Positions 27,474 through 52,612 of a stretch of DNA of 64,000 nucleotides are shown piece by piece. The stretch is taken from positions 207-64,206 of the forward strand of contig JAGNLJ010000007.1 in the NCBI GenBank assembly GCA_017999645.1. Direction: 5' to 3'. Source of the stretch: Alphaproteobacteria bacterium (GTDB taxonomy: Bacteria; Pseudomonadota; Alphaproteobacteria; Micavibrionales; Micavibrionaceae). Numbering within the stretch: the stretch's first letter is position 1; the number at the start of each line of letters is the position of its first letter. Below the pieces are notes generated by a model. That model saw only the letters and a program-made list of their open reading frames with translations, was not told the DNA's origin and searched no databases. A program made the translations under genes and the position numbers.

Positions 27474-27489
27474 GTCTTCCAAAAAGTCA

Positions 27490-27507: not shown

Positions 27508-27537
27508 CTTTGTAATATTTATATGCGGTTTGAACGA

Positions 27538-30243: not shown

Positions 30244-31344
30244 ATGACGCTGCGCCTCGAGCTGCCCCGCTGGTACGATCTCCACGCCCATTTCCGGCAA
30301 GGGCCTCTCATGAAGGCGCTGGTTGCCGATCACCTGGCGATGGGCTGCGCGGGCATCCTCGCGATGCCGAACACGAAGCCTCCAGTCTCCAAAGTTAACA
30401 AGAAGGACCCCGGCGAAGGCTGGAGCATCGAGGAATACCTCCAGATGCTGCGCAAGGCGGGCGGCTCGAGATTTACCGACATTATAGTGCCTCTCTATCT
30501 GACGAAGGACACAACGCCTGCCATGATTGAGGCGGGGGCCAGATCAGGCCTTTTGCGCGCTGCAAAATATTACCCCCCGCACGGCACCACCGGGGCCGAG
30601 CAGGGCGCGCCCTTTCAGACCTATATAGACAATGGCGTTTTTAAAGCCATGGAGCAGGCCGGGGTGGTGCTGAATATCCATGGCGAGGAGCACGGGCTGG
30701 ACGCTGTAAAGTACTTCGGCAAGACCAATGCCGAGGAGATCTTTTACAAAGAACGTCTACCTCACGCGGTCGACAAATTCCCTAAGCTCAAAATCGTCGG
30801 TGAGCACATTACCACCCGGGTGGCTGCCGAATTTATCGAGGCCGGGCCCTCTACGTTGGCCGCCACGGTCACTCCGCAGCATCTTATCTATACGGTCGGG
30901 CATTTGCTGAAGGGTCTTAAATACCACCTCTACTGCTTGCCGCTTCTTAAATACGAAGAAGATAGGCTGGCGCTCTGGGCGGAAGTGACGGCTGCCGACA
31001 ACACCAAGTTCTTCGCCGGGACCGACAGCGCCCCGCATGTTAAGAAATTAACGGAATGTGGCTGTGCGGCGGGTTGCTATACCGGCGGCGTCGCGCCGCA
31101 GCTTTACATTCAGGCCTTCGAGAAGGCGGGCATCAATATGGGCAGCGCGGCAGGCGTCCAGATGTTCAAAAAATTCCTGTGCACCAACGGCCCGGCTTTT
31201 TACGGCCTTCCCGTATCGAAAGAGACTTTCGTTCTCGAGAAGGTCGAGACGGAAGTGAAAGTCGGAAAGTCGTGCGTTGTGCCCCTGCCGCTCGGTGCGG
31301 CGGCTGACGGTGAAAAAGCCACACTTCACTGGCGCGTGGCCTAG
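30244..31344 (+). CDS. pyrC: Dihydroorotase (E. coli-type class II)
   Basis: DLHAHFRQG, AMPNTKPPV and FFAGTDSAPH parallel E. coli PyrC motifs. Confidence 0.9.
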   Translation: MTLRLELPRWYDLHAHFRQGPLMKALVADHLAMGCAGILAMPNTKPPVSKVNKKDPGEGWSIEEYLQMLRKAGGSRFTDIIVPLYLTKDTTPAMIEAGARSGLLRAAKYYPPHGTTGAEQGAPFQTYIDNGVFKAMEQAGVVLNIHGEEHGLDAVKYFGKTNAEEIFYKERLPHAVDKFPKLKIVGEHITTRVAAEFIEAGPSTLAATVTPQHLIYTVGHLLKGLKYHLYCLPLLKYEEDRLALWAEVTAADNTKFFAGTDSAPHVKKLTECGCAAGCYTGGVAPQLYIQAFEKAGINMGSAAGVQMFKKFLCTNGPAFYGLPVSKETFVLEKVETEVKVGKSCVVPLPLGAAADGEKATLHWRVA

Positions 31345-34289
31345 CTCGCCATTTTCCGGCTTTCCTGCAGCAATGCCGCGCGTGTCGTTTCGAAAATGGC
31401 CGTCATATCACTGAGCTTTTCCTTGAGCATTTCAGGCGGGCAATTTTCATCGTTGGCGGCCTGTTCCATGTCTTTGGCGAGATCAGAGAGTGTGGCCGCA
31501 CCCATCCTGCGGCTTGCGGATTTAATTGTGTGGGCGGGACGAATAGCGCCCTTGATGATCCCGGTTTCGAGCGCGGTTTTGATTTCCTGCATATAGCTCG
31601 TCACATCCTCAATATAATAGGAGAGGATGGAGGTATATTTATCTTTGAGCACTTCATGCGATTCGATGACGGCGGCGATGTCCAGTACAGCGTTGGTGGA
31701 AACTGTAGACGGCACCGTTATTTCGACATACTCCTCGACGTAAGGAGGGGATGTGCGGCCATTGACCCAGGTAAAGACTTTCTCCCGAAGGTCATTCGTG
31801 CGCACCGGCTTGGAAATGTAATCGTCCATCCCGGCATCCAGACAGCGCTGGCGGTCGCCCTTCATGGCGTTGGCCGTCAGAGCGATGATCGGCAGATCGG
31901 CCCGGATCGACCCGGCTTTTTTGAGATCGCAGATTTTCCGGGTGGCTTCGAACCCGTCCATGAGCGGCATCTGGCAATCCATCAGGACGAGGTCGAAATC
32001 TCCGGTATCAACGGCTTTCAGGGCTTCCTGGCCGTTCGAGGCAATGGTGATGACGCAGCCAAGCTGCTCGAGCACGTCCTGCGCGAAGGCCTGGTTGATA
32101 CGGCTGTCTTCAGCCAGCAGGACTTTAACGCCGTCGAGGCGGACAGGCGATTCCTTGCTGTCCTGCCCGATGCCGTATGTGTCCACCCGGATCAGGCTGT
32201 CGGTTTCGCCGCCTCGATATTTGCTCCAGACAACGGCGAGCGTTTCGATCAGCGCCTGTGTTGTGATGGGTTTGGCGATGTAGGACGAAAAGCCTTTGCG
32301 TGCAAGATTGTCGGAAGTCATGGAAGGCGTTCCCGCCGACGTCAGCATAATAAGGCATGTATTGGCGAAGGCAGGCTCATCATTGATGGCGCGGGCCAGC
32401 ATCTCGCCGTTCATGCCGGGCAGCAGGTAATCGATGATCACCATTTTATACGGGTCACTCATGGCCGCCGCTTCGTGCATCGTCTCAAGCGCTTCTTCAC
32501 CGCTGAAACAGGTAGCGCAACGCATGCCGGCGAATGTGAGCTGCTCGGTCATGAGCGTATGAATAACCAGGAGGTCGTCGACAATCAAAACTTTTACGTC
32601 TTTCAGTACCGGCGGCCGAATGGGTGCCTGGGTTTCCTTGGCGTTGCGCGTGAGCGGCAGGGTGAAGGTGAAGGTCGAGCCTTTGCCCGGCTCGCTCTGT
32701 AGTGTGATTTTACCGCCCATCATTTCAACGAGACGTTTGCAGATCGAAAGCCCGAGTCCCGTGCCCCCGAAATCGCGGGTAGTGGAAGAGTCCGCCTGCA
32801 CGAATTTTTCAAATATCTTCTCATGCGCTTCCGCCGCTATGCCGATGCCGCTGTCTTCTACGCTGAAGACAAGATTGACTTTGTCGGGTTGCGGATTGCT
32901 TTTGTCCTCGCGCACGGAAACGACAACGTAGCCTTTTTCGGTGAATTTGATTGCATTGTTGATAAGATTGCTCAAAGTCTGGCGTACTCGCACAGGGTCG
33001 GCGTAAACAAATTGCTCGCTGCCCGGAACATAACGCACGGCAAGTTCCAGCGCCTTTTCCCGCGCCTTCGGCGCATAAAGTGCGCATGTGTCATCTACAA
33101 CCTGCAGCATGTTGGTCGGGACAGGGTCTAGCACCATTTTGTCCGCCTCGATTCTGGAGAAATCGAGAATGTCTTCGATGATATTCAGCAGCGTTTCGCC
33201 CGAGCTTATGATGGTTTTTGTATAGCCGCGTTGTTCAGGCCCCAGCGGCGTTTGCATCAGAAGTTCCGCCATGCCGAGCACGCCGCTCATGGGGGAACGG
33301 ATTTCGTGGCTCATGGTCGCGAGAAATTCATTCTTCAGCCTGTTGGCTTCTTCGGCGCGGAATTGAGCCTCGCGCAGTTGCTGCATGTTAAAGCTCATCT
33401 GGCGAAGATAATAGGAAGCCAAAAGCGTAAGAACAGAAAGTGCCGAAAATAAAATGTAAGGGTAATAATTATGGTGTGATTCCAGAAAAGGAGTGGTCGG
33501 TAAAAAATTAAGACGAAGTGCCCTGTTTCCATCCAGTTTTATAAAATTGGAAGCATTATAAAAATTGCTGGATACGCCGGGCTCTCTTGTTTCATAAATG
33601 CGCATGGCTTGTTCGTCTGCGTGAACGAGGTCGATGGTAACGTGGTTATAAGGCACCAAGCCGCCTGCGCCGACCGCCATTTCCGCTATTTTGCCAATAT
33701 TAATGATGCCCACGGAGAAACCGAATAATTCGGCATCTTCATTTTTATAAACCGGATGAATTAGAAGAATGTGATTGCTGCCTAGAAAATTATTGTGTTC
33801 ATCATTCCTGAAGACGGAAAGATTATTGAAGAAAGAAACGCGGCTTTTAGAATTCGCCGCCTGCTGGAGCATTGAATTGAATTCTTGGTCTTTGGAAATT
33901 TCAAGTTTATGGTCGCTGTGCGATTTCCATGGGCTGGTGGAAGAGATGGCATAAAGCGGAATATTTTGATCGTTTTCTGACGGCATAACCCAGGCCAGAA
34001 TTTCATAATTCTCGTTACGCTTCAGGAATGGCGATGTAAAAGTATGGAATTCGTCGGGATCAACATATTTTGAAGCTAAAAAATAATTTCCGATATCTTC
34101 AAGCATCTGGATATGCGTAACAACGGCATTTTCTATCAAGGATAAGTTTTTAGCCGAAATTCTTTCGAAGGCTTCCCTGCTATCGGTGCTGGTAGATTTG
34201 TATATCTCAACCGAAAACATCGCCGAGATAATCATCCCTACGAAAAAAACTATAAAATGAAGGTATTTGCCGTGAGAAAGTCGGTGCAT
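31341..34289 (-). CDS. Hybrid sensor histidine kinase (periplasmic sensor-TM-HisKA-HATPase-REC-REC-Hpt)
   Basis: H-box FLATMSHEIRSPMSG and G-box GGTGLGLSICKRLVEMMGG. Two receiver domains (IIDYLLPGMNG and LMDCQMPLMDG). The C-terminal Hpt has PAHTIKSASRRMGA. Confidence 0.9.
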   Translation of the reverse strand: MHRLSHGKYLHFIVFFVGMIISAMFSVEIYKSTSTDSREAFERISAKNLSLIENAVVTHIQMLEDIGNYFLASKYVDPDEFHTFTSPFLKRNENYEILAWVMPSENDQNIPLYAISSTSPWKSHSDHKLEISKDQEFNSMLQQAANSKSRVSFFNNLSVFRNDEHNNFLGSNHILLIHPVYKNEDAELFGFSVGIINIGKIAEMAVGAGGLVPYNHVTIDLVHADEQAMRIYETREPGVSSNFYNASNFIKLDGNRALRLNFLPTTPFLESHHNYYPYILFSALSVLTLLASYYLRQMSFNMQQLREAQFRAEEANRLKNEFLATMSHEIRSPMSGVLGMAELLMQTPLGPEQRGYTKTIISSGETLLNIIEDILDFSRIEADKMVLDPVPTNMLQVVDDTCALYAPKAREKALELAVRYVPGSEQFVYADPVRVRQTLSNLINNAIKFTEKGYVVVSVREDKSNPQPDKVNLVFSVEDSGIGIAAEAHEKIFEKFVQADSSTTRDFGGTGLGLSICKRLVEMMGGKITLQSEPGKGSTFTFTLPLTRNAKETQAPIRPPVLKDVKVLIVDDLLVIHTLMTEQLTFAGMRCATCFSGEEALETMHEAAAMSDPYKMVIIDYLLPGMNGEMLARAINDEPAFANTCLIMLTSAGTPSMTSDNLARKGFSSYIAKPITTQALIETLAVVWSKYRGGETDSLIRVDTYGIGQDSKESPVRLDGVKVLLAEDSRINQAFAQDVLEQLGCVITIASNGQEALKAVDTGDFDLVLMDCQMPLMDGFEATRKICDLKKAGSIRADLPIIALTANAMKGDRQRCLDAGMDDYISKPVRTNDLREKVFTWVNGRTSPPYVEEYVEITVPSTVSTNAVLDIAAVIESHEVLKDKYTSILSYYIEDVTSYMQEIKTALETGIIKGAIRPAHTIKSASRRMGAATLSDLAKDMEQAANDENCPPEMLKEKLSDMTAIFETTRAALLQESRKMAS

Positions 34290-34290
34290 T

Positions 34291-35244
34291 TTACCATTCC
34301 AGTTGCGGGCTGCCGCCGACGAAGGCGATGGCCTGGTTGCCCTGTTGATTGTAGGTCAGCTTGTCGAAGCTGACGGCATTGGCCTGTGCGATGCCGCGCC
34401 CATGGTTGTCCCCCGCGCGCGCCGGCTCAATCGTCATATAACGTTTCCAGTTAAAGCCATTGCCCTGGTCAGTGATGATTGCGTAGAAGCCATCTTCCTT
34501 ACGTGTGATGATGAGTTCAGCCGTGCGGCTTCCGTAGGAATCAAGTTGTTGCCTGCGCTCAATTTCGGCTAGCCACGTACCATTATCCAGCAACTGACTT
34601 TTACGCTCATAGCCAATTTCGAGATTGCCGTGTTCGACGGCATTGGTCAGGAGTTCAGCAAGTCCCAAGAGAACGCGCTCGGGATCGGGAAAGCAATGTG
34701 CTGTGAACGCGGCGAGGCATTCCGCCTCGTTAAGTGTGCGGAAATTGAATTTGCAGGTTCGGATCAGATTGAAGCTGGTGTGATGGCGTTTCAGTTCATC
34801 ACTCAAAGTTCTGTTCTGTTGCGCTTCGCGTGTCGCGGCCAGAAGAACCGAGCGCAACACATCTTCATTCACCGGCTTTGCAAGATAGTAGAACACGCCG
34901 GCCTCAAGCCCTTCCTGCATCTGTTTAACGGTCGAGGCGCCGGTTACCATGATGACAGGGATTTTGCGCAAAGCCGGGTCATCTTTAATCAAACGAACGG
35001 CGCTGAGGCCATCCATGACCGGCATCAGGCGGTCCATCAGAACGACGTCGATGCCGCCCTTCGCGCGGCGCAGGATTTCCAGCGCCTGCTGTCCGTCGGC
35101 GGCCTCTTCCATCATGTGGCCCATCTGCCTGATCTGCTCGCCAAGGAAGGCGCGCTCCAGCCTGTCATCCTCAACGGCGAGAATAGTTAGCGGGCGATCC
35201 TTGGCGCTTAGGAAAGGGATAACGTTTTCGGCAAGTTGTTTCAT
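34291..35244 (-). CDS. Response-regulator receiver fused to an RsbW/SpoIIAB-like ATPase (Ser kinase/anti-sigma-type HATPase)
   Basis: REC domain (ILAVEDD...VLMDRLMPVMDG...K). C-terminal N-box ELLTNAVEHGN, G1 DQGNGF and G2 GRGI. Confidence 0.75.
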   Translation of the reverse strand: MKQLAENVIPFLSAKDRPLTILAVEDDRLERAFLGEQIRQMGHMMEEAADGQQALEILRRAKGGIDVVLMDRLMPVMDGLSAVRLIKDDPALRKIPVIMVTGASTVKQMQEGLEAGVFYYLAKPVNEDVLRSVLLAATREAQQNRTLSDELKRHHTSFNLIRTCKFNFRTLNEAECLAAFTAHCFPDPERVLLGLAELLTNAVEHGNLEIGYERKSQLLDNGTWLAEIERRQQLDSYGSRTAELIITRKEDGFYAIITDQGNGFNWKRYMTIEPARAGDNHGRGIAQANAVSFDKLTYNQQGNQAIAFVGGSPQLEW

Positions 35245-35253
35245 AAATTCTCC

Positions 35254-36576
35254 TTATCGTTCCGTGAAGGCGGTTTTCATCGCCGTGTGAACCGGCTTGA
35301 GCAGGTATTGCAGGATGGTTTTTTCGCCGGTGATGATTTCTGCCATGGCGGTCATGCCGGGCACGACAAGGTTGCGCTGGTCATGGCCGACGTGGTTTTG
35401 TGAAAGATCGACCCGGCCACGATAATAGCGCTCGCCATTTTCACTGGTAAAAGTCGTAGCCGAGATCTGGTCCAGTTGGCCGGTGATGAAACCGTAGCGT
35501 GAGAAATCGAAGCTGCTGAATTTCACCTGTACCTTCTGGCCGGTTTTCAGGTGGCCGATATGTTGCGGCGGGATTTTTACCTCGACGATCATTTTTTCAT
35601 CCATTGGCACGATTTCCATCAAGGTTTGACCCGGCTGCGCGACGGCACCGACCGTATTGATCGCAAGACCTTTGACGAGGCCGCGAGCGGGAGAGCGGAC
35701 TTCAAGCCTGCCCACGCGGTTCTTCAGTTTTTCGATCAGTTCGGTATTCTGCGCTTTTTCGGCGATGACCTGGTCGATGCGCTCATAGGCATCGTCCTGC
35801 TGGCTGGCACCCAGAGAGCTCAGGCGGTTTTCGAATTCACTGATTTCCGCTCTTGCGCCGCCGATGCGGTTTTTAAGCTGTTTAACTTCGCCGTCGATTT
35901 CATTGAGGCGCTGTTTTGTCTCAAGAAACTGCACGTCTGAGGTATAGCCCTTGCGGTTAAGTTCCGCGCGGCGGTCATACAGGTCTTTCGTAATAGTATA
36001 ATTGCTGCGCGCCGTATCAAGCTCGGCCTGCAAGGCTGAAATCATATTTTTCTTCTGCTTGATCTGTTCCTGGATGATTTTCTGTTCTTCGCTGCGGGCC
36101 TGCACCATGGAATCGAAGAATGATTTCTGATCCTTGATCAGGGCAGCGTCTTTTATCTCCGCATCCGAAAATTTAGGCTCGCGGCTTTCCGCGAAAGCGC
36201 GGAGACGTTCTTCCTGCATGGCAAGGCTGGTTTGCTTGCTGAGGGCGCGGTTCAGGTCATCCTGCGATCCGGCGCCATCGAGAACCATCAGTACCTGACC
36301 TTTCTCGACCTGCTGGCCTTCATGGATCTTGATCTCGCGGACGATGCCACCTTCAAGGTGCTGGACGACCTGCTGGAATCCTTGCGGTACTACTTCGCCC
36401 GGCGTGCGTGCGACTTCGTTGATGTTCGTCACGCCCGCCCACGCGATGAAGGCAAAAATTGCAAGGCTGGTTGTCACCATCGTCAGTTTGATGATGGTGG
36501 GGTTTGCCGCTTCCTCAAGCTGGACAGCCTGGGAAAGATAGCGGGTTTGTTTGTCGTGCGTTTGTGATCTGGTCAT
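35254..36576 (-). CDS. HlyD-family type I secretion membrane-fusion protein
   Basis: N-terminal TM segment, lipoyl-like hairpin (GGIVREIKIHEGQQVEKGQVLMVLD), long coiled coil and beta-barrel C-terminus. AGGAGG lies 7 nt upstream of the ATG at 36576. Confidence 0.9.
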   Translation of the reverse strand: MTRSQTHDKQTRYLSQAVQLEEAANPTIIKLTMVTTSLAIFAFIAWAGVTNINEVARTPGEVVPQGFQQVVQHLEGGIVREIKIHEGQQVEKGQVLMVLDGAGSQDDLNRALSKQTSLAMQEERLRAFAESREPKFSDAEIKDAALIKDQKSFFDSMVQARSEEQKIIQEQIKQKKNMISALQAELDTARSNYTITKDLYDRRAELNRKGYTSDVQFLETKQRLNEIDGEVKQLKNRIGGARAEISEFENRLSSLGASQQDDAYERIDQVIAEKAQNTELIEKLKNRVGRLEVRSPARGLVKGLAINTVGAVAQPGQTLMEIVPMDEKMIVEVKIPPQHIGHLKTGQKVQVKFSSFDFSRYGFITGQLDQISATTFTSENGERYYRGRVDLSQNHVGHDQRNLVVPGMTAMAEIITGEKTILQYLLKPVHTAMKTAFTER

Positions 36577-38756
36577 CACGCGGCCTCCTGTTTGTTTATG
36601 GTTTCTGTAACTGCTTCACGCGCACCGGCCATCGGTGTTTCGCCGCGGCGCAAGACAACAAGCGTGTCTGCAAGATTGATGAAGTCTTCGCGGTAACTGA
36701 TCATAATGCAGGTGCGCTTGCCTTTCGTGTGGGCGAGATAATCCTTGAGATTTTTCCCCGCGCGGCTGCTGAGCAGAGCGTTGGGAAGCTCATCGATAAG
36801 CATAATAGGTGCGCTGTGGAGATAGGCGCGCGCCAGCGAAAGCCGCGTAGCAAGGCTGGAAGGCAGCGCATCGGCACCGTAACGACCGATAATGGTGCCC
36901 AGCCCGGCGGGCATGGCGGCGATCTCGTTCCAGACATCGGCCATCTGTAATGCTTTCTCGATGTCTTCCTGGCTCGCCATCGGATTGCCGAGACGGAGAT
37001 TTTCAAAAATCGTGCCCTGGAAGAAATCGGCCTGCTGCGGGATATAGGCGATCTGGCGCCGAAGGTCCGGCGCATCCAGTTGGCGGATATCGAAGCCGTC
37101 AATCTGCACGGCACCGGAAGTGGTTTTGTACAATCCTTTGATCAGTTTCAGCAAAGTTGTTTTGCCGGAACCGTTCTCACCCGTGACGATGACGAAATCG
37201 CCGGGGCGTGCGTCGAAGGTCAGGTTGTTGAAGACAGGATCGGTGTCTTCACCGTAATTAATTCCGGCGTTTTTAAAACTGACCTGGCCGCGCATTTTCG
37301 GCACGCGCGCAGCGGTGACAGCCTCCATCGCCTCAGTGTCTATATCCATGAGCTTGTTGACCTGCATGATGCTGTTGCGCAGCTGTTCAAGGCGCGGGAT
37401 CATTGTGCACAGGCTGTAGAACGGCATCAGTACGCGCCAGACGAGGATCATTGTTGCGACCAGTGCACCCGTACTCATCATGCCTGCCCAGATCATGTGA
37501 ACTCCGAAGCCGACCGTGGCAACGGCGGCAATCAGTGTAATCGCATGGGCCATCGTCTCCGCCATCATGCCAAGCCAGTTCAGGCGGAAATGTGCAAGCA
37601 TTTCGCGGCCTGAAAGCTCGCGGAACTTGGCCTGCCATGTTTTCGAAAGGCCGTTGCCACGCACGCCCTGGATTTTTTCAAAAGTCTCAATCGCGAATTG
37701 CTGGCGTGCCGAACTGGCTTTTGCAGCGAGACGGATGGTAATTTTCACTTTTTTGTGAATGCCCCACAATAGCAACCCATAACAGGCAACCATCGCCAGC
37801 GGCACAAGAACGAGCGGCCCGGCAACGGCATAAATGGCAAGCGCGGCAATGGCAACAAAGGGAAGTTCCAGCATCGACAGGAACACCGATCCGCTGAAGA
37901 AATCGCGTACGGATTCGAATGTTTTAATACGGGCGATCTGCGCGGCGACGGACGCTCGCTCAATCAGGGAGGGAGGAAGGCCGATCAGGTGGGCAAATAT
38001 TTTATTACTGACAATATTGTCCATGCGCGCGGCAAGCCATGACAGCCCCTGCGAACGGATGCGGCGGAGAACCCATTCGAATCCAATTGCAATGCACGCG
38101 CCGACAGCGAGCATCGGCAGGATTTCAGGCGCACCTGCTGCGATAACGCGGTCGTAAATAAGCATAATGAAAAGCGGCGTCGAAAGCGCAATAACATTCA
38201 GCATGAAGCAGCCCAGCAGAATCTGGCCGAATGTACCGCGGAAGCGGCTCAGCAGGGCAGAGAACCAGCTTTTGCCTGAACCTGCGCGCATAAATTTGGA
38301 AGTGACGACGCGGTTTTCATCGTAGCGCTCGAATATCCACGCTTCGCCGGTTTCAGCCGCCATATGGTCCTTTGATATTTTTTTGATATGGCCGTTGGCG
38401 TAAACTTTAAAATGCCCGCCTTTTTGTTCAAGAATGATAACAGGATGACCGCTGTCGCCGATGAACAGGCAGGGCAGCAGGCGCGGGTCTATATCTCTTA
38501 ATTGTGTTGTCACAGGGCGTGCAAAATAACCGAGATGCGCGAAGGTATTCAACGTCGATTGCTGCGTCATCTTGCCAGGGTCATAAGGCAACGCTTCAAG
38601 AAGACGGTAAGTCCTGCAGCGCGGCTCAAGTGCGAGCAGGAGCACGCAGAGGCCGCTCTCCCATTGATTTTTTTCGATGAAATTGTCACGGCCTGATTGC
38701 TGCAGGACGCCCATCATCTGTGAAACGGGATTTACTTCGGCGGTAGTATCGGTCAT
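36576..38756 (-). CDS. T1SS-type ABC exporter subunit A (N-terminal C39-like domain plus TMD plus NBD)
   Basis: 726 aa. Q-x5-C (NQWESGLC) and a downstream GHPVIIL resemble the C39 Gln/Cys/His arrangement. Walker A GENGSGKTT, Walker B IMLIDE, degenerate signature LPSSLATR, and Tyr in place of the H-loop His (ISYRE). Confidence 0.9.
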   Translation of the reverse strand: MTDTTAEVNPVSQMMGVLQQSGRDNFIEKNQWESGLCVLLLALEPRCRTYRLLEALPYDPGKMTQQSTLNTFAHLGYFARPVTTQLRDIDPRLLPCLFIGDSGHPVIILEQKGGHFKVYANGHIKKISKDHMAAETGEAWIFERYDENRVVTSKFMRAGSGKSWFSALLSRFRGTFGQILLGCFMLNVIALSTPLFIMLIYDRVIAAGAPEILPMLAVGACIAIGFEWVLRRIRSQGLSWLAARMDNIVSNKIFAHLIGLPPSLIERASVAAQIARIKTFESVRDFFSGSVFLSMLELPFVAIAALAIYAVAGPLVLVPLAMVACYGLLLWGIHKKVKITIRLAAKASSARQQFAIETFEKIQGVRGNGLSKTWQAKFRELSGREMLAHFRLNWLGMMAETMAHAITLIAAVATVGFGVHMIWAGMMSTGALVATMILVWRVLMPFYSLCTMIPRLEQLRNSIMQVNKLMDIDTEAMEAVTAARVPKMRGQVSFKNAGINYGEDTDPVFNNLTFDARPGDFVIVTGENGSGKTTLLKLIKGLYKTTSGAVQIDGFDIRQLDAPDLRRQIAYIPQQADFFQGTIFENLRLGNPMASQEDIEKALQMADVWNEIAAMPAGLGTIIGRYGADALPSSLATRLSLARAYLHSAPIMLIDELPNALLSSRAGKNLKDYLAHTKGKRTCIMISYREDFINLADTLVVLRRGETPMAGAREAVTETINKQEAA

Positions 38757-40459
38757 ATGCGGAGCTCCGTGTACGGCTTTACTTGATTGGTGCTGTAGGA
38801 TTCGTCGGTTTCAATCAGCTTGCCGTTTTCAAGGCGGCAGAAGCGCGTTGCCAGTCCACGAATATTGCAATCGTCAGAAACCAGGACCATGCTCGCACGT
38901 CCTTTCAGCCGGGCGAGAAGGCTGTAAACGAGATTGTATCCTTCGCGATCAAGTGCGCGGTCGGCATTGTCGAAAAGGATGATGCGCGGCTTGGGTGCCA
39001 GCACGCGCGTCATGGCGATGCGCTGCTTGAGACCCGGCGGAATACTGTCGGTGTTGGTGCCTGTGAGCAACGTGTCAAAACCAGAAGGCAGGCGGGCGAT
39101 ATCGCGGTCGAGTTTCAGCAGCGCGGCAATTTCCTGTACTTCTTTTTCAGGAATCTGACCGAAGCAGGTCATGTTGTCGCGAATTGTGCCGCGGAAAATC
39201 ACACCTTCGGAACGGATCAAGCCGACATGACGGATCAAATCTTCCGAAGCGTAGCGCAGGATGTTGCGGCCATCGATATTGATAGTGCCTTTTCCGGGCG
39301 GGTAAATACCGGCAAGAAGCTGGAGAAGAAGCGTTTTGCCCGAACCATGCGCGCCGGAAAGCAGGATGCTTTCCCCGCGTTTGAGGTCGAGATCGAGATT
39401 GTCGAGCAACCAGGGCTTGTCGTCGGAATGACGGAAAGAAAGTTTTTCAATTTTGATGGTGCCTTCGCGCACAGAATTTGCATCGTTAGCGGGCGTGCCG
39501 GGATATTGCGGTGTTTCAAAAATCGCCTCGACCTTCTGGCGTGCCAGCGCGTAATCCTGGTACCTAGCCCAGAGGCCCAGCGCGCGTTGAATTGGTTGCA
39601 TCATCCGTCCGGAAAGCAAGATAGTGGCGATCAGCGCGCCTGTCGTGATATGGCCGTGCAAGGCAAACAGCGCCCCGGATACAATGACGGCGGCAACCAT
39701 GATGTGCGAGAAAACAGCGCCAGAATCAAAGGTGCCGGATGTCGCTTTTGTAACGTTGTAATTGGAAAGTGTAGAAGTTTCCTCGAGCTTCTCATAGCGG
39801 CGCGCAAAATTATTCTCCAGCGCGAAGGATTTGATCGTATGAACGCCATCCAGTCCCTCAATCAGGAAGTTATAACGTTCATCGTCCGTTTCATCGCGCT
39901 CTTTCAGTGCACTGCGCAATCTCTGGCCCTGCGCCAGCGAAACAATCGTAAAAACCATCAGCACGGCGCAGGGTACGGCGGCGAGAGGACCCGCGATATA
40001 AATGATAAGGCCGAGAAAAACTGGCACGAAAATCATTTCGAACAAAACCGTCAGCGCATAGCCGTTATAAAAATCCTTCAGCTTGGTCACTGCGCTCATG
40101 CGGTGAAGATGTTCGCCGATGCCGTAAGGGCCGAGGCGCGAAAGATCGGCCTCAAGAACATGATTCATCGCCGAGCAGGAAAGACGGTGTTCGTAAGCCG
40201 CCCCCGCCCAGCCCATGATATAGGCACGGGCCAGGCGCAGGGTCGCTTCCAGGGCAACGGCCAGTCCCACGCCTGTAATCAGGACAGGTAGCGTGCCGGA
40301 GCCGGGGTTGGGAAGGATCCGGTCATAGACCTGAAGGGTCATAACCGGCAGGGCAAGAGAGAGAATGTTGATGGCGAGGGTTGAAAGCAGGAGACTGCCC
40401 GTGCTCACGCTGTAGCCGTCAGGGCGAAGCAAATCTTTGTTGTGTTTGTGCTGGCTCAT
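38753..40459 (-). CDS. T1SS-type ABC exporter subunit B (TMD plus NBD, no peptidase domain, catalytic Glu missing)
   Basis: 568 aa. Walker A GAHGSGKT (39332-39355), signature-like PPGLKQRIAMTRV (39020-39040), Walker B IILFDNAD (38960-38983, Asn where the catalytic Glu is expected) and D-loop ALD. Confidence 0.88.
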   Translation of the reverse strand: MSQHKHNKDLLRPDGYSVSTGSLLLSTLAINILSLALPVMTLQVYDRILPNPGSGTLPVLITGVGLAVALEATLRLARAYIMGWAGAAYEHRLSCSAMNHVLEADLSRLGPYGIGEHLHRMSAVTKLKDFYNGYALTVLFEMIFVPVFLGLIIYIAGPLAAVPCAVLMVFTIVSLAQGQRLRSALKERDETDDERYNFLIEGLDGVHTIKSFALENNFARRYEKLEETSTLSNYNVTKATSGTFDSGAVFSHIMVAAVIVSGALFALHGHITTGALIATILLSGRMMQPIQRALGLWARYQDYALARQKVEAIFETPQYPGTPANDANSVREGTIKIEKLSFRHSDDKPWLLDNLDLDLKRGESILLSGAHGSGKTLLLQLLAGIYPPGKGTINIDGRNILRYASEDLIRHVGLIRSEGVIFRGTIRDNMTCFGQIPEKEVQEIAALLKLDRDIARLPSGFDTLLTGTNTDSIPPGLKQRIAMTRVLAPKPRIILFDNADRALDREGYNLVYSLLARLKGRASMVLVSDDCNIRGLATRFCRLENGKLIETDESYSTNQVKPYTELRI

Positions 40460-42405
40460 CCGAACAGCCCTCCGCCGCCGAATAATCCGCCGCCGCCGTG
40501 GTGATCGTTACCCAGCAGGCTTCCAAGGCCTTCCGCAACATCGCCCACAGGTTCAGGCAGGACGCCGCCAAGCGCATCGCCAAGCCCGCCGCCGATGATG
40601 TCACCGGCATCGGGCAGGATATTTTCCGGCCACGAAAGCGGGCCTTCACCGCCGCCAACGCCACCGGCGATATCGCCAAGGCCGCTGCCGGGCAGGCTGC
40701 CGATCAAATCAAGCGCAGCATCTATATCGAGATCGATATCACCGACAATATCCTCGACGGGATCGAGTTCGATATCAGCCAGATCAATATCAGGCGTATC
40801 AATGCCAAGCGGATCGAGATCTATGTCGAGGGCGATATCGGTATCGCCTGCGCCATTATCGGTTTCATAGTTGCCGAGAAGATCGAGATCAAAATCCGTC
40901 GCAACGCCGCCGTCGTTATCTAGTCCGGGCAGTAAGCCGTCGATAACATCGCCCCCTATATCTTCGAGAAATTCACCCGCTTCAGCGAGAAGACTGTCCT
41001 CGCCTGTGCCGCCAGCAAAATTGTCAACCAAACCGTCGGCTGTATTGCCGAGCAGGTCAGTCGCCACGCCTAGATCGATGTCGATATCGCCGACAATATC
41101 CTCAACCGGGTCGAGACCGATATTGAGTGTCGAATCAAGAAGTCCGTTATCCACGATATCAAGATCGAGGCCGAGATTGAGATCTGTGTCACCAGCACTG
41201 TGGTCCGGAGCGAACAGGCCGAGGCCGATGTCACCGAGTATGTCGACATCGCCGACAATATCCTCAACCGGGTTGAAGACGACATCCACAATGCCGTCGA
41301 TAAAATGCGCGTCACCGAGCAACGGCAATTCAATACCCAGGCCCAGATCCGTATCGCCAGGACGATGATCGTTATTACCATCCAGAATACTCAGAATGGA
41401 ATGCAGATCGACCAGCACAAGATTTTCTGTGCCCAGGATGGGGTCAAGGAGATTTGTAACAGGCGAAAGATCAATCACCTCATTGACAACATTAAAAACG
41501 GAATCGCCCGAGAGAATGTCGAGATCCAGATTCGTGACTTCGCCAAGGATCGTGTCGAGATGAACCGTAAGCCCGTCGCCGCCGAATATATTATTGAAGA
41601 AGTTATTGACGATATTGGTGACGTTATTCGTGATTTCGGTCAGGTTCAGGATATCAACGATATTTGTAATTTCCGTGATGGTCGTCGTGATAAGATTCGT
41701 GACGTCGCCCAGATCGATAATCGTCAGATCGCCAAGATCAATATCTCCAAGCTTGATAATGATGTCTCCAATGTCGATGTCGAGGAAATTGTCGATATCG
41801 ATATTGATGATATTGTGGCCGCCTTCGCCATTTGTTCCGTTAAGGCCGTCCGCGCCGTCGACACCGTTAAAGCCTTCGCCGTCGATTCCGTTAGTCGGTA
41901 TGAAGGGGGTGCCGCCGCCACCATTAAATACAAAACCGGAAGCTGCGAGCGGCAGAACTGTCGAAGCTGTGTAGCCGCCATTGTTACCTGCGCCAATGTC
42001 ACTAAAAGAAGTCGCATCTTCGGCAACATTGCGATCGGTGCTGATATCGTTGTTATTGGAATCGAGCGCGAACGGGCTGCTGGCGTTTGTGAATCCTGCC
42101 GCGAATGAAATCGCCGAGGCAATACCGCCTGAAGCTCCGGGCGCTTCGCCTGTGATAATGAATGGATCGGTGAGGGCCATAGCCTCGTTGGTCTGGCCAG
42201 CCTGCATCATAAGAAAATTCAGGTTACCGGAACCGAACAGGCTCTCGGTGACGCCGTCGAGATCTTCGGCGCTGTACTGATCAGCATCAAGCTTCGTGAC
42301 TGGCACGCTCATCTCAAAATAATCCGTGGCCGCAGATGAATTTTGCGGTTCAAGGCTGAGAGCGAGACCGCCCGAAGAGGGCGAATTGATCGGTGACTTT
42401 TCCAT
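40456..42405 (-). CDS. Hyper-acidic Asp/Gly/Ile/Leu/Asn/Thr repeat protein, presumed cargo of the adjacent exporter
   Basis: 649 aa. AGGAGG lies 8 nt upstream of the ATG, and the stop overlaps the next start (ATGA). About a fifth of residues are Asp/Glu, with only about 6 Lys/Arg and no Cys. It contains 3x GDTD(L/I)xL and 3x PVEDIVGD(I/V)D, and ends GGGGLFGGGGLFG. Confidence 0.8.
   Translation of the reverse strand: MEKSPINSPSSGGLALSLEPQNSSAATDYFEMSVPVTKLDADQYSAEDLDGVTESLFGSGNLNFLMMQAGQTNEAMALTDPFIITGEAPGASGGIASAISFAAGFTNASSPFALDSNNNDISTDRNVAEDATSFSDIGAGNNGGYTASTVLPLAASGFVFNGGGGTPFIPTNGIDGEGFNGVDGADGLNGTNGEGGHNIINIDIDNFLDIDIGDIIIKLGDIDLGDLTIIDLGDVTNLITTTITEITNIVDILNLTEITNNVTNIVNNFFNNIFGGDGLTVHLDTILGEVTNLDLDILSGDSVFNVVNEVIDLSPVTNLLDPILGTENLVLVDLHSILSILDGNNDHRPGDTDLGLGIELPLLGDAHFIDGIVDVVFNPVEDIVGDVDILGDIGLGLFAPDHSAGDTDLNLGLDLDIVDNGLLDSTLNIGLDPVEDIVGDIDIDLGVATDLLGNTADGLVDNFAGGTGEDSLLAEAGEFLEDIGGDVIDGLLPGLDNDGGVATDFDLDLLGNYETDNGAGDTDIALDIDLDPLGIDTPDIDLADIELDPVEDIVGDIDLDIDAALDLIGSLPGSGLGDIAGGVGGGEGPLSWPENILPDAGDIIGGGLGDALGGVLPEPVGDVAEGLGSLLGNDHHGGGGLFGGGGLFG
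40731..41278 (-). repeat. Three roughly 35-bp near-identical coding repeats (PVEDIVGDIDI units)
   Basis: GTCGA(T/C)ATCGCCGACAATATCCTCAACCGGGT occurs at 41080-41115 and 41242-41278. The variant GATATCACCGACAATATCCTCGACGGGAT lies at 40731-40770. Confidence 0.85.
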
Positions 42406-42593
42406 TGGGTTTTCCTCCTGGTACTCAGTAACGCATCATAAAAATTTACAACCATTAGTTTAATAACGTGTAAAAATTAGATGGCATTATTGTCATTGAA
42501 TACAGGCGTATTTGGCTAAAATTGAGAAAAGCAGGCGCGCTTGTATTTTCTTGAATATAAACTTATAGTTGTATATCTTCCGCAACGGAAGAC

Positions 42594-44006: not shown

Positions 44007-44082
44007 GGTTTCCGGCCTTTTCAAGGGCTTTTGTCGGCAGGAAAACTCGTTTAGAATCGTCTAATTCATGGAGGCGATTTAT

Positions 44083-45150
44083 ATGACAAGGTTATTGGCA
44101 GTTCTTGCGCTTTTTGCATTGTTGAGTGGGGCGCAGGCTCAGGCAGAAGCCCCGACGCTCGAACAGATCCGTGCCGACCTCAACCTCCAGCTTCGGACCG
44201 ATAACCCGCCCGCACCCATTGAGATTCTGAACGTTTCTTATGATCCTACGCGCGAGCTTTATACCGATTATAATGCAGCCTTCAAAAAATTCTGGAAAGA
44301 AAAATCCGGGCAGGACGTCGAGATCAAGCAATCGCATGGCGGCTCCGGCAAGCAGGCGAGGGCTGTTATATCCGGATTGAAAGCGGATGTCGTCACGCTC
44401 GCGCTGGCTTATGACATCGACAGGATTGCGGTCGAGAAGAAAGACAGCATGCCCGCAAACTGGCAGGCAAGACTGCCGAACAACAGCGCGCCTTATACTT
44501 CGACGATTGTGTTCCTGGTGCGTAAGGGTAATCCGAAGAACATTAAAGACTGGGGCGATCTCGTGAAAGATGATGTCCAGATTGTTACTCCTAACCCGAA
44601 AACCTCGGGCGGTGCGCGGTGGAATTACCTCGCGGCATGGGCCTATGCCGAAAAAGCTTTCGGCGGCGATGAGGCGAAAGTGAAGGAATTTGTCGGCAAG
44701 CTGTTTAAAAACGTGCCGGTTCTCGACTCCGGCGCTCGTGGTTCCACCATGACCTTTGTACAGCGCAATATCGGCGATGTTCTGCTGGCATGGGAAAATG
44801 AAGCGTTTCTGGCAATCAATGAACTCGGTCCCGATAAATTTGAGATCGTCATGCCCTCTATCAGCATCCTGGCCGAGCCTCCTGTCGCAATGGTCGATGG
44901 CAACGCCATTAACAAAAACGCAATAGAGGTTGCCCGCTTTTATCTCAGCTATCTTTATTCAAAAGAAGGGCAGGAGCTGGTGGCGAAGCATTATTTCCGT
45001 CCCGTAGATCCCGTAGTCATGGCAACTAAACGTGAAATGTTCCCGGAAATTGAAATGGTGACAATCGACAAGGATTTCGGCGGCTGGGCGGAAACGCAGA
45101 AAATCCATTTCGATGACGGCGCTATATTCGACCAGATCTACAAACCGTAA
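44083..45150 (+). CDS. cysP: Sulfate/thiosulfate ABC transporter substrate-binding protein
   Basis: [23 protein letters not shown]...[24 protein letters not shown] matches the Sbp/CysP family. GGAGG lies 8 nt upstream of the ATG at 44083. Confidence 0.9.
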
Positions 45151-45163
45151 ACGGATTTAAATA

Positions 45164-46018
45164 GTGGCCACCCTCGCATTATCACTGAAAAAACCAGGCG
45201 TAATTCCGGGATTTGGAATTACGCTGGGATTTACGCTGCTTTATCTTGCGCTGATCGTCATGATTCCGCTGGCGGGTCTTGTGATCAAGACACTCGAGCT
45301 AAGCTGGCAGGAATTCGTGGCGACCATTACCGACCCGCGGGTCGTTGCCGCCTTTGAAATCAGCTTCGGCATTTCATTTATAGCCGCGCTGATCAATGCC
45401 GTGTTCGGTCTGCTCGTGGCATGGGTGCTGGTGCGTTACGATTTTCCGTGGAGAAAAGCGATCGATGCCATGGTCGACCTGCCTTTCGCCTTGCCGACTG
45501 CCGTGGCCGGTATCGCATTAACCGCTCTTTACGCTCAAAATGGCTGGATTGGTCAGGTTTTTGCAAAATTTGGTATTGAAATAGCCTTTACGCCCGCAGG
45601 TATCGCTATAGCCCTTGTCTTTGTGGGCCTGCCGTTCGTTGTGCGCACTGTCGAGCCGGTCTTGCGCGATCTCGATCCCGAAATGGAAGAGGCCGCAGCC
45701 TGCCTCGGCGCTACACGCCTGCAGGTTTTCACACGCATTATCCTGCCGCAGGTTCTGCCTGCCTTGATGGCGGGGTTTGCAATGGCATTTGCCCGCGCTC
45801 TCGGCGAATATGGCTCGGTCATCTTTATTGCAGGCAACATGCCGTACAAATCTGAGATTGTTCCGCTCATCATCGTTATCAAACTCGAGCAATATGATTA
45901 TGCAGGCGCGACGGCGATTGCTCTCGTAATGTTGATCGCTTCGTTCATTATGCTCCTGATTATCAATCTCCTTATGAAATGGAGCCACGTGAGACGTGGC
46001 GGGGGGATGCGCGCATGA
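45164..46018 (+). CDS. cysT: Sulfate ABC transporter permease CysT
   Basis: GTG start, 6 TM segments and an EAA-loop region ([21 protein letters not shown]). Confidence 0.9.
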
Positions 46019-46860
46019 CCGATTATGCTCTTAATATACGCACCAATCACCCACTTGCGGAAACGCGCTCGGTCCGCCTTACATTAATTGGTACGGCATT
46101 GTTTTATATTGGCGTGATGATTTTTTTACCGCTAGTCGTCGTATTCATCGAGGCGTTGAGGCAGGGCATGGGCGCGTATATTGACGCAATCACCGAGCCT
46201 GACGCGCAGGCAGCAATCAAGCTTACTTTGCTAACCGCTTCTATTGCCGTTCCTCTCAATCTCGTTTTCGGTCTTGCCGCGAGTTGGGCCATCGCCAAGC
46301 ATGATTTCCGCGGCAAGCATTTGCTCATTACTTTTATCGATCTTCCTTTTTCGGTTTCCCCGGTGATTTCTGGTCTTATCTACGTGCTATTATTCGGCTC
46401 GCAGGCCGCGTTGGGCCAGTGGCTGGATTCCCAAAATATCCAGATACTGTTCGCTGTGCCGGGTATCGTGATTGCCACCATTTTCGTCACGTTCCCGTTC
46501 GTTGCACGTGAAATGATTCCGCTGATGCAGGAGCAGGGCATCGAGGAAGAGGAGGCGGCGATCCTGCTTGGCGCCACAGGCTGGCAGACATTCTGGCGCG
46601 TGACACTACCGAACGTCAAATGGGGGCTGCTCTACGGCGTTCTGCTTTGTAATGCCCGCGCCATGGGCGAATTCGGCGCGGTTTCGGTGGTCTCGGGCCA
46701 CATCAGGGGCGTTACGAATACCATCCCCTTGCATGTCGAAATTCTTTATAATGAGTATAATTTTGTCGCGGCCTTCGCAGTGGCATCGCTGCTTACCGTT
46801 CTCGCGCTTGTCACATTACTCATTAAAGAATGGCTGGAACCGAGGCTGGAGAAAGAATAA
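46015..46860 (+). CDS. cysW: Sulfate ABC transporter permease CysW
   Basis: The ATG at 46015 overlaps the cysT stop (ATGA). The EAA loop reads [22 protein letters not shown]. Confidence 0.9.
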
Positions 46861-47903
46861 TGGGAATACGCGCCGATAATATTTACAAAATCTTCCGCGA
46901 CTTCATGGCGCTCGACGGCGTCAGCCTGAATGTAGGCACCGGCGAGTTGGTGGCGCTGCTCGGGCCGTCGGGCTCAGGTAAAACCACGTTGCTGCGGATT
47001 ATCGCTGGGCTGGAATTCGCCGATCTCGGCGAAATCTATATCGACCGCGAGGAGGCCAGCCATACGCCGGTCAAGGAGCGCCGCGTCGGCTTCGTGTTTC
47101 AGCACTATGCGCTGTTTCGCCACATGACCGTTTTCGAAAATATCGCGTTCGGTCTGCGGGTCAGGCCGAAGGAGAGCCGCCCGAGCGAAGGTGAGATCCG
47201 CAAAAAAGTTATGAAACTTATAGACCTGATTCATTTATCGGGTCTGCATAACCGCTATCCCGCGCAGCTTTCCGGCGGCCAGCGCCAGCGGGTTGCGCTT
47301 GCGCGTACGCTCGCTGTGGATCCGAAAGTTCTACTACTGGATGAACCATTTGGCGCCCTGGACGCAAAAGTGCGTAAAGAATTGCGCCGTTGGTTGCGAA
47401 AAATCCATGACGAGTTGAATATCACGACTATTTTCGTCACGCACGATCAGGAAGAAGCGCTCGAATTGGCCGACCGCGTCGTCGTCATGAACAGCGGAAA
47501 AATCGAACAGGTTGGCAGCCCTGAAGATGTCTATCACAACCCGGCCAACGCGTTCGTTTACGACTTCTTGGGTAATTACAACGCGTTTGATGGTTTTGTG
47601 GGAGAGGACGGCGAGTGCCGCTTGCTGAAGAACGGCGAGAAACTACCCGCAGGCACCGAGCGCGTCCGGCTTTTCGCGCGTCCGCATGACATGGAGATTA
47701 CGCCGCAGCCGCAGGATAAAAACGCAATCCCTGCGCGCATCATTCACATCAATCCGGCCGGGCCGATGGTTTCAATAGAGTTGGAGAACGAGCAGGGTAA
47801 ATTGCTGCAGGCAGCCGTAACGAAAGAACGTTTCATGGAGCTTGGGCTGGAAAAACGCCAGAACGTTTACCTGAAGGCGCGTGACATGCGCCTGTTCAAC
47901 TAG
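46860..47903 (+). CDS. cysA: Sulfate ABC transporter ATP-binding protein
   Basis: The ATG overlaps the cysW stop (TAATG). Motifs [22 protein letters not shown] and [11 protein letters not shown], plus a C-terminal regulatory domain. Confidence 0.93.
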
Positions 47904-52575: not shown

Positions 52576-52612
52576 AGCTCGGCACAACAACCATCTCGAA
52601 GGGAGAATGATT

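Follow-up and report, generated by a model that had tools for sequence, protein, structure and literature searches.

A hyper-acidic, cysteine-free repeat protein of Micavibrio-like Alphaproteobacteria as the probable passenger of an adjacent type I secretion system with two ABC half-transporters

Nearly all that is known of type I secretion comes from RTX passengers and from ATP-binding cassette (ABC) exporters that are homodimers. The gene considered here lies at positions 40456 to 42405 of a 64,000-nucleotide stretch of DNA (hereafter, the window; contig JAGNLJ010000007.1 of GenBank assembly GCA_017999645.1) from an alphaproteobacterium of the family Micavibrionaceae. It encodes a 649-residue protein, here called the cargo, and is followed by genes for two ABC half-transporters, ABC568 and ABC726, and for a HlyD-family adaptor. 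Judging from its genetic context and composition, the cargo is very probably a substrate of this adjacent type I secretion system (T1SS). It would be of a well-known kind, a type I passenger encoded beside its own pump, and what appears new about it is its repeat and two conserved boxes near its N and C termini (the N-box and the C-box).

Several described systems resemble this locus in part. RsaA and oscillin exemplify a common pattern among T1SS-dependent surface-layer (S-layer) and fibril proteins: these are acidic and Cys-free, hold an N-terminal anchor, C-terminal Ca2+ repeats, and an uncleaved signal, and are encoded immediately upstream of the genes for the ABC transporter and the membrane fusion protein (MFP) (PMC3034196). 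Oscillin is a rod-shaped fibril protein of 646 residues, and N-terminal anchoring parts are known in RsaA-type proteins (PMC3034196). The Vibrio MARTX system has four components, RtxB, RtxE, RtxD, and TolC, and is the sole T1SS with two ABC proteins that was found described (PMC3034196). The adhesin RtxA from Legionella, exported by LssB, is reported to be both held on and released from the cell surface (PMC11264772). Asymmetric heterodimeric ABC exporters, TmrAB among them, are described as pairing one consensus with one degenerate ATP site (PMC8277102).

The reading frame of the cargo, proposed in an original prediction made from the bare sequence, is confirmed by the list of open reading frames (ORFs) and by the translation, although that prediction missed the minus-strand orientation of the gene and the N-box (residues 35-73). 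The ORF starts with ATG, is read from 42405 to 40456 over 649 codons, and is preceded by an AGGAGG ribosome-binding site (RBS) 8 nt upstream of the start; the plus-strand frame of the same interval is full of stops. Stop/start overlaps of four nucleotides (ATGA) join the cargo gene to ABC568 (40456-40459), ABC568 to ABC726 (38753-38756), and ABC726 to hlyD (36576-36579), suggesting translational coupling at the three junctions. The presumed cargo status of the protein is supported by these overlaps and by the divergent tolC gene, in an arrangement that recurs in 39 to 43 of 50 genomes. No Sec-like hydrophobic or transmembrane (TM) segment was found in the cargo by a simple hydropathy test, which is not a dedicated predictor (the 19-residue Kyte-Doolittle mean peaks at 1.49, in a segment that includes charged residues). 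The interpretation as a T1SS substrate is drawn from this absence, from the operon and its synteny, from HlyD and TolC matches above their cutoffs, and from the acidic, Cys-free composition.

This composition is extreme. The most abundant residues are Gly (15.9%), Asp (14.0%), Leu (13.1%), Ile (9.4%), and Asn (7.4%), and the 120 acidic residues are accompanied by only five Lys and Arg, no Cys, and one Trp. The calculated net charge is about -115 at pH 7, with a pI of about 4, a grand average of hydropathy (GRAVY) of +0.19, and a mass of about 65-66 kDa. The protein is thus hyper-acidic, Cys-free, and of low complexity, as originally described, and the scarcity of Lys and Arg was rightly noticed, with an estimate of about six instead of the exact count. 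The net charge per residue is -0.177, compared with -0.003 +/- 0.030 in the 47 other ORFs of the window, from which the cargo deviates by 5.8 standard deviations; its Lys and Arg make up 0.8% of the residues, whereas the other ORFs average 12% and none falls below 6.5%. The charge bias is far outside chance. Since the GC content of the gene (53.2%) is close to that of the window (53.1%), this acidity is a genuine outlier and not an effect of local base composition. A tandem-repeat search found neither DNA-level tandem repeats nor recent duplications, which disfavors a spurious-ORF origin of the repeat pattern. The second most acidic ORF of the window, a 183-residue frame at 52607-53158 (+), has a net charge of -0.098 per residue and also lacks Cys.

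The conservation of the locus was followed in GTDB r232, scanned with a single genome for each species; this gave 50 loci, all from metagenome-assembled genomes (MAGs) labelled Micavibrio, Alphaproteobacteria, Rhodospirillaceae, or Pseudobdellovibrionaceae/Bdellovibrionales. The last two labels, carried by the MAGs of L003, L008, L010, L016, L021, and L029, do not indicate true relatives of Bdellovibrio, because the NCBI taxonomy still files Micavibrio there. The order of the genes is tolC (divergent), cargo, ABC568, ABC726, and hlyD, often followed by genes for a protein with REC and HATPase_c_2 domains and for a hybrid histidine kinase. The ABC568 orthologue follows the cargo in 43 of the 50 loci, the other seven ending at a contig edge first, while ABC726 is found in 41 and HlyD in 39, with order and strand always kept. 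A divergent tolC lies upstream in 30 loci, the REC/HATPase_c_2 gene follows hlyD in 29, and the hybrid kinase comes after it in at least 17. The shortfalls of ABC726, HlyD, TolC, and the REC/HATPase_c_2 protein are mostly due to contig or flank ends; in several loci of a divergent clade with ample flank, no match to tolC or to the REC/HATPase_c_2 gene was detected. Even in the most divergent loci, the ABC-ABC-HlyD genes are preceded by a cargo with the N-box, the DPVE...GDIDI units, and the GGLFG end, and only its middle is exchanged for poly-D/G/N, Pro-rich, or other spacers. In the close relative L001, the cargo is 80% identical and its neighbors 77-95%, and the complete chromosomes L022 and L037 have one locus each.

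The cargo belongs to a small, uncharacterized family, and its repeat, N-box, and C-box match nothing described, as far as sequence comparison tells. A search of 5.8 billion proteins retrieved 193 homologues, all of them unnamed or annotated as hypothetical, the nearest being 89% identical; an organism is named for only a few, in each case Micavibrio spp. or an alphaproteobacterial MAG. Searches of Pfam, NCBIfam, and the PDB sequences returned no match to the cargo, and 63 relatives gave only collagen-like Pfam and NCBIfam matches. A profile of the repeat likewise had no match among the PDB sequences; it also had none in the 5.8-billion index, where it missed even members of the cargo family, so that this last result is uninformative. 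The claim that the protein is unlike canonical RTX substrates therefore stands, and no clear match to a characterized adhesin or RTX family, which the original prediction had named as a refutation, was found; the only known element is the collagen-like Gly-X-Y stretch. In the genome paper of M. aeruginosavorus, a T1SS and "hemolysin-related" RTX proteins are listed, but not the cargo family; its supplements give no identifiers for the neighboring genes.

Family alignments of 22 and 63 members, complemented by motif counts for the N terminus and LapG sites over 77 members, show a protein with conserved termini and a variable middle (Table 1). A variable polar N terminus of about 30 residues, which in the cargo corresponds to the polar, unconserved residues 1-34, precedes the N-box. 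With the consensus PVxKLDADQYxAEDLDGVTESLFGSGNLNFLxMQAGQTN, the N-box is the most conserved segment of the family (mean top-residue frequency 0.81, compared with 0.25-0.60 elsewhere), and its residues K38, L39, A41, D42, D48, G51, G58, G60, and Q68 are invariant. When an N-box profile was searched against 1.84 billion cluster representatives, it matched 215 clusters (50% identity) at E <=0.001, 186 of them at E <=1e-10, and in all matches the box starts about 15-40 residues from the N terminus. The proteins holding it are typically of 560-1160 residues, and shorter matches look like fragments. The N-box was found only at the N terminus of the cargo family, which makes it the signature of one family; a modular N-terminal leader common to other types of cargo was rejected for this reason.

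The four zones into which the translation had been divided are all recovered. The N-terminal Ser/Ala/Gly-rich region is present, and so is the collagen-like zone, which includes six uninterrupted Gly-X-Y triplets (residues 178-196) with G184, G187, G190, and G193 invariant or nearly so. Among 63 homologues, 23 match Pfam Collagen PF01391 (best E 2.5e-8) and the Scl1/Scl2 models, and up to about 17 triplets are visible in one relative (P0080). The runs are low in proline, as in the collagen-like proteins Scl1 and Scl2 from Streptococcus and Lcl from Legionella, and they may likewise act as trimerizing stalks. Differences from those proteins lie in the number of triplets, in the absence of an LPXTG anchor and of the Lcl C-terminal domain, in the type I export inferred for the cargo, and in the fact that some relatives have swapped Gly-X-Y for other spacers. 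The third zone is indeed an Ile/Asp/Asn/Thr block, variable across the family, and consists of short (I/L)GD repeats (198-236), a Thr/Asn/Ile/Val segment (236-275), and a Leu/Asp-rich region; the beta-solenoid suggested for it is unsupported, as the periodicity of residues 236-275 is of 3-4 and helices are predicted there.

The last zone contains three copies of a 53-residue unit of the form GDTDL...(D/N)PVExxxGDxD (consensus ETDNSAGDTDLTLGLDLDLLDLPLLDDVLDIPLDPVEDLVGDIDLDLGLALDL), placed by a hidden Markov model (HMM) where the original prediction had recognized three repeats. With an HMM built from these three units, between two and seven copies were found per relative (mode three), and every relative has them. 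Residues D10, E38, G42, D43, and D45 of the unit are invariant in an alignment of 30 units, and D8 and L34 are conserved in at least 90%. An array of RTX nonapeptides is lacking, as had been stated, but a regular expression for GGxGxDxUx finds one exact match, GGTGEDSLL (residues 465-473), of which G465 and G466 are invariant in the family. The Gly-rich tail ends in GGGGLFGGGGLFG and includes the family C-box, W-(T/P)-E...LPDPVGxxAEGLG, followed by the nearly invariant GGLFG-COOH; W592 is invariant, and E594, P617, and G645-G649 are conserved in at least 90% of the members. Self-cleavage of the FrpC type at an Asp-Pro bond of the DPVE motif was considered and rejected, because the proline is not invariant: relatives read DLVE, DIVE, DAIE, or DSIE at this position.

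Table 1. Features of the cargo gene and its secretion locus (positions in the window; residues refer to the cargo)
Feature	Coordinates	Strand	Evidence
Gene for the Cys-free, hyper-acidic cargo of 649 aa (stop codon 40456-40458)	40456..42405	-	ORF list, translation, composition
N-box, residues 35-73 (PVTKLDADQYSAEDLDGVTESLFGSGNLNFLMMQAGQTN), family signature	42187..42303	-	Conservation, profile search
Variable Ser/Ala/Gly-rich spacer, residues 74-171	41893..42186	-	Conservation 0.30; pLDDT 32-43
Collagen-like Gly-X-Y stretch, residues 172-196	41818..41892	-	Translation; homologue Pfam matches
Zone 3, residues 197-343	41377..41817	-	Periodicity analysis, AlphaFold2
Repeat unit 1, residues 344-397 (GDTDL...NPVEDIVGDVDI)	41215..41376	-	Repeat HMM E 2.6e-16
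Repeat unit 2, residues 399-451 (GDTDL...DPVEDIVGDIDID)	41053..41211	-	Repeat HMM E 1.8e-19
Linker, residues 452-513, RTX-like nonamer and predicted helix 472-491	40867..41052	-	Regular expression; AlphaFold2 crop
Repeat unit 3, residues 514-567	40705..40866	-	Repeat HMM E 3.3e-17
Gly-rich C-terminal region, residues 568-649: C-box (W592-P-E...LPEPVGDVAEGLG) and GGLFG-COOH	40459..40704	-	Conservation
ABC568, half-transporter without N-terminal appendix, degenerate ATPase motifs	38753..40459	-	PF00664, PF00005; TIGR03375 336.3 bits
ABC726, half-transporter with ~165-aa N-terminal LssB-type C39-like non-catalytic domain	36576..38756	-	TIGR03375 457.2 bits
HlyD-family type I secretion periplasmic adaptor, 441 aa	35254..36579	-	TIGR01843 381.9 bits, cutoff 208.65; one N-terminal TM
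REC and HATPase_c_2 (RsbW-like) protein	34291..35244	-	PF00072, PF13581
Membrane hybrid histidine kinase HisKA-HATPase-REC-REC-Hpt	31341..34289	-	Pfam and NCBIfam; TM 12-30
TolC-family outer-membrane channel, 470 aa	42594..44006	+	TIGR01844 266 bits, cutoff 225
Divergent cargo-tolC intergenic region, 188 bp, presumed promoter region, holds cargo RBS AGGAGG	42406..42593	.	Sequence

Structure prediction with AlphaFold2 gave limited detail. The full-length model (63 sequences) has a mean predicted local distance difference test (pLDDT) score of 45.8, which makes it unusable for a fold search; only a helix at 58-78, the second half of the N-box, exceeds 70, and residues 232-291 are helical with a pLDDT of about 57-63. 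A model of residues 336-649 (96 sequences) reaches 63.3 overall, 71-81 for residues 346-495, and 75-81 for repeat 2. In this model, a strand after GDTD and one or two more strands are followed in each unit by a short helix at (N/D)PVEDIV, while GD(I/V)D(I/L) forms a long strand. Hydrophobic residues recur about every 2-2.5 positions between residues 198 and 236, strongly every 2.0 within repeat 2 (z = 8.5), and every 3-4 between residues 236 and 275, which indicates alternating Asp/aliphatic strands mixed with a heptad-like segment right after the collagen-like run.

The putative pump is built from two ABC half-transporters, both of which have LssB (TIGR03375) as their best model, yet score below its curated cutoff of 693.1 bits; for ABC726 the alignment spans model positions 2-695. 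The HlyB model (309 bits for ABC726, 285 for ABC568) and the PrtD model score below LssB, and the NHLP ABC models, with 184-221 bits, far under it. The N-terminal domain of ABC726 had been described as a C39-like domain retaining its Cys and His. About 35 of 40 orthologues retain Cys37, which in the window sequence has a Gln six residues before it, but the His does not hold up: His104 is Arg in the 93% identical orthologue of L001, and at no position of the N-domain does a His reach 90% conservation among the 40 orthologues. Pfam Peptidase_C39 was found in just two of 18 members (E 0.006), and a profile of the N-domain had no match among the PDB sequences. These observations together mark the domain as a divergent, non-catalytic C39-like appendix.

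The ATPase motifs of the two subunits have decayed in a complementary fashion. ABC726 keeps Walker A in 39 of 39 sequences and the Asp-Glu of Walker B in 38 of 39, with a degenerate signature and an H-loop that is mostly Tyr. In ABC568, Walker A is degenerate, Walker B reads Asp-Asn in 31 of 42 sequences, the H-loop residue is Asp, and the signature-like PPGLKQR is invariant. In a head-to-tail dimer, this pattern would result in one consensus and one degenerate ATP site. The pump therefore appears to be an asymmetric heterodimer, which implies one catalytic and one degenerate site, unusual for a type I secretion ABC transporter, and the same complementarity argues that both subunits would be needed. 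No description of an asymmetric ABC pair in a T1SS came up in the literature, although no search was aimed at one. Vibrio MARTX systems are similar in using two ABC genes and one MFP for one passenger (PMC3034196); the present locus differs in that one of its ABC proteins lacks an N-terminal appendix, in the complementary motif decay, in the absence of rtxC and rtxH, and in its unrelated passenger.

The overall proposal, a dedicated Ca2+-folded T1SS passenger forming a surface fiber or coat, is considered fairly likely. According to it, the cargo would be co-translated with its pump genes from a single operon, and a net charge of about -115 would hold it unfolded in the low-Ca2+ cytosol. The C-box and its GGLFG tail are proposed to be an uncleaved secretion signal, in view of their position and conservation, and the non-catalytic C39-like domain of ABC726 would serve as a docking or chaperone site rather than as a protease. 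The protein would then be threaded through the ABC-HlyD-TolC channel with its C terminus first. Outside the cell, divalent cations would bind the invariant D-x-D...E...G-D-x-D of the 53-residue units and drive the folding of beta-rich modules, in analogy to the Ca2+ ratchet of RTX proteins but with a different repeat. The massive divalent-cation binding originally suggested is plausible, as the invariant residues of the repeat are mostly acidic (D, D, E, and G-D-x-D), and a cation-dependent folding of the cargo seems rather probable. In the following steps, the Gly-X-Y stretch and the heptad-like segment would favor a trimeric fiber, as the succession of these two segments suggests, and the N-box, the last part to leave, would hold the protein on the surface of the producer as a fiber or coat, and possibly as an adhesin, of these epibiotic predators. 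Retention by the N-box is suggested by the conserved termini, the fast-evolving middle, and the LssB-like pump, by analogy with the N-terminal anchors of RsaA-type proteins (PMC3034196) and with surface-held adhesins such as RtxA from Legionella (PMC11264772); a surface-retained fiber or coat is rated at somewhat less than an even chance.

Compared with the RTX proteins (HlyA, CyaA, and AprA, with HlyB/HlyD/TolC as a reference machinery), the cargo is similar in adjoining genes for an ABC transporter and an MFP, together with an outer membrane protein, in being acidic, Cys-free, and rich in Gly and Asp, in lacking a Sec signal, and in its conserved C-terminal end. Cation-driven extracellular folding would be the most economical mechanism for the cargo. 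It differs in having one isolated GGxGxDxUx match instead of an array, in the absence of any match to Pfam HemolysinCabind or the NCBIfam RTX models (63 relatives included), in its 53-residue D-x-D...E...G-D-x-D unit, modelled as strand-strand-helix-strand, and in an ABC component that is apparently a heterodimer encoded by two genes. The LssB/LapB systems (RtxA from Legionella, LapA from Pseudomonas) are comparable in the best score of both ABC proteins, in the non-catalytic C39-like appendix on one of them, and in that the most conserved part of the cargo is N-terminal, where these adhesins carry their retention module. In contrast to them, the ABC scores stay under the cutoff of 693, there is no LapG di-alanine site, and the cargo is of 65 kDa, without Ig-like or VCBS repeats or an RTX block and with an N-box of about 40 residues. 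Neither lapD nor lapG was found in the operon or among the annotated genes of the window, and the REC/HATPase_c_2 protein and the hybrid kinase occupy that place. Retention of the LapA type, with release by LapG, was accordingly rejected: the di-alanine site [TAP]AA[GV] occurs in eight of 77 members at no fixed position, and the operon has no lapD or lapG.

Several observations weigh against the proposal of a cation-folded, trimeric, surface-retained passenger. The Gly-X-Y run of the window protein consists of six triplets only, which is too short for a stable triple helix alone, and in the divergent-clade cargos L033, L037, L039, L041, L042, L046, and L047 (ORF starts at locus position ~9770-9950, or ~4290 in L047) the collagen-like run is replaced by poly-Asp/Gly/Asn tracts or Pro-rich sequences such as PEPPEPP and DPEDPDDP. 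From this replacement, the collagen-like segment seems to act as an exchangeable spacer. With about 40 residues, the N-box is much smaller than known retention modules, and a LapG-type site is absent from the window protein. The confidence of the AlphaFold2 models is moderate at best, and the Foldseek search with residues 336-649 returned nothing better than E 0.88 and a TM-score of <=0.14 in the PDB and no match in BFVD. Whereas S-layer proteins are typically very highly expressed, the codon bias of the cargo is average (effective number of codons 49.4, compared with 46.3 +/- 5.2), giving no hint of expression at that level. Finally, no paper describing the family was found in literature searches.

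Four other explanations were weighed. The cargo could be an S-layer protein of the RsaA type, secreted by the T1SS and anchored to lipopolysaccharide by its N-terminal part as a subunit of a two-dimensional lattice. RsaA from Caulobacter (exported by RsaD/RsaE) and oscillin from Phormidium are also acidic and Cys-free, are encoded directly upstream of ABC and MFP genes, and have a conserved N-terminal part, C-terminal repeats (with cation binding predicted in the cargo), and a putative signal; a protein of about 66 kDa with conserved termini fits that description (PMC3034196), and genes for a UDP-sugar dehydrogenase, an epimerase, and a glycosyltransferase lie elsewhere in the window. The cargo departs from these proteins in showing no sequence similarity to RsaA, SapA, or any S-layer family, no RTX repeats, and a codon bias without sign of very high expression, while the presence of collagen-like and heptad-like segments speaks for a trimer of elongated shape and not for a lattice subunit. 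No report of an S-layer in Micavibrio was found in a non-exhaustive literature search. A lattice is regarded as distinctly unlikely. Somewhat less improbable, though still doubtful, is a freely released effector against prey, exported by the same T1SS and acting as a membrane-active toxin or as a polyanion that strips Ca2+ and Mg2+ from prey lipopolysaccharide. Micavibrio is an obligate epibiotic predator, and the organisms are Micavibrio-like. A free effector would fit this lifestyle and the up-regulation of the T1SS of M. aeruginosavorus during attachment (PMC3189940), the protein has a hydrophobic GRAVY along with its 120 acidic residues, and the co-conserved membrane sensor kinase and REC protein suggest a signal-triggered use. 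Against it, the protein lacks TM-like segments and any hydrophobic or amphipathic helical region that could form pores, the operon has no acyltransferase or immunity gene by Pfam and NCBIfam, and conserved termini, a variable middle, and collagen-like segments better fit a structural, assembling protein; cation stripping is moreover speculative, with no precedent cited.

That the protein is a substrate of the PCAT type (peptidase-containing ABC transporter), with a long N-terminal leader cut by the C39-like domain of ABC726 at SSGG (10-13) or GSG (58-60), is the least probable of the alternatives and hardly to be expected. Its appeal comes from the N-terminal appendix of ABC726 with C37 in most orthologues and a Gln six residues upstream, from the nearly invariant G58-S59-G60 with a Leu at -4 for a cut after Ser59, and from the likeness to double-glycine exporters (CvaB, ComA, PCAT1, and NHLP), with which the locus has in common a C39-related appendix, a conserved N-terminal part of the cargo that includes G-S-G, and, for NHLP, two ABC genes. 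The N-domain, however, has no conserved catalytic His (His104 being Arg in L001) and matches Pfam C39 in only two of 18 members, NHLP models score lower, and a 649-residue repeat cargo without the hydrophobic leader pattern is unlike the substrates of these exporters. Residues -7 and -12 before GSG are Thr and Asp, and the residues after GSG are conserved as much as those before it, unlike in a discarded leader. The SSGG singled out in the original prediction does exist, but "GG" occurs within the first 25 residues of only six of 77 relatives; with an unconserved SSGG and an exporter without a conserved catalytic His, the leader processing built on it is not supported. Equally remote, or nearly so, is that the protein is no passenger at all, but either serves the transporter from the cytoplasm or periplasm, as an accessory or regulator, or is a low-complexity ORF that is not expressed. 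Its low complexity and the mostly low AlphaFold2 confidence would agree with this, but the frame, its position-specific invariant residues, and its termini are conserved in no fewer than 215 clusters (50% identity), a strong RBS precedes the gene and ATGA couples it to the next, the DNA shows no tandem repeats that would make a spurious ORF, and an accessory role would leave two to seven acidic repeat copies and the collagen-like segments unexplained.

The regulation and surroundings of the locus offer some further clues. The hybrid histidine kinase has an N-terminal extracytoplasmic region of about 245 residues, and a link of the REC/HATPase_c_2 protein to secretion is inferred from synteny only; no STAS-type partner for it is visible in the operon. 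A second hybrid histidine kinase, BarA/TorS-like and of 762 residues, is encoded at 56534-58822 (-), about 14 kb from the secretion operon. A scan for promoters and terminators gave weak consensus matches only, none above the expectation from shuffled sequence, and a search of the window for tRNA genes and Rfam families found none. The rest of the window holds ordinary housekeeping genes of a chromosome: sulfate assimilation and transport, polyamine synthesis, glycyl-tRNA synthetase, MotA/B-like stators, and sugar-nucleotide enzymes, with no signs of a mobile island around the locus. The sulfate genes flank the secretion locus, with a CysN/CysC fusion and CysQ at 21976-24526 (+) and the sulfate ABC importer Sbp, CysT, CysW, and CysA at 44068-47903 (+); the adjacency of Sbp and TolC is kept in L001 and was undetected in all other loci. 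The polyamine cluster (25573-29797, -) consists of genes for N-carbamoylputrescine amidase, agmatine deiminase, a deoxyhypusine-synthase-like protein, and a PLP decarboxylase, and the third of these reaches 568 bits (cutoff 500) against the model for 1,9-bis(guanidino)-5-aza-nonane synthase.

Taken at its fullest, the interpretation as a T1SS passenger would define a new class, in which a non-RTX cation module of about 53 residues rich in Asp and Leu and a collagen-like trimerizing stalk, an obligately asymmetric heterodimeric ABC transporter, and a co-encoded phosphorelay serve a lineage-specific surface fiber for attachment to prey or feeding; this is thought improbable as a whole. A structural surface protein, which is the likeliest outcome, would come as no more than a moderate surprise, and if the cargo is an ordinary structural coat, the value of the finding would lie mainly in annotation, as a new domain family and secretion signal for some 200 "hypothetical proteins". 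Nevertheless, a passenger present in single copy throughout the lineage, which follows the usual scheme (acidic, Cys-free, and encoded beside its pump) with an unrelated repeat, for which no relative in sequence or fold was found, would offer a natural test of whether cation-driven extracellular folding is general or a peculiarity of RTX. It also provides a conserved candidate for a surface or secreted protein in obligate bacterial predators, whose machinery for attachment and feeding is poorly understood.

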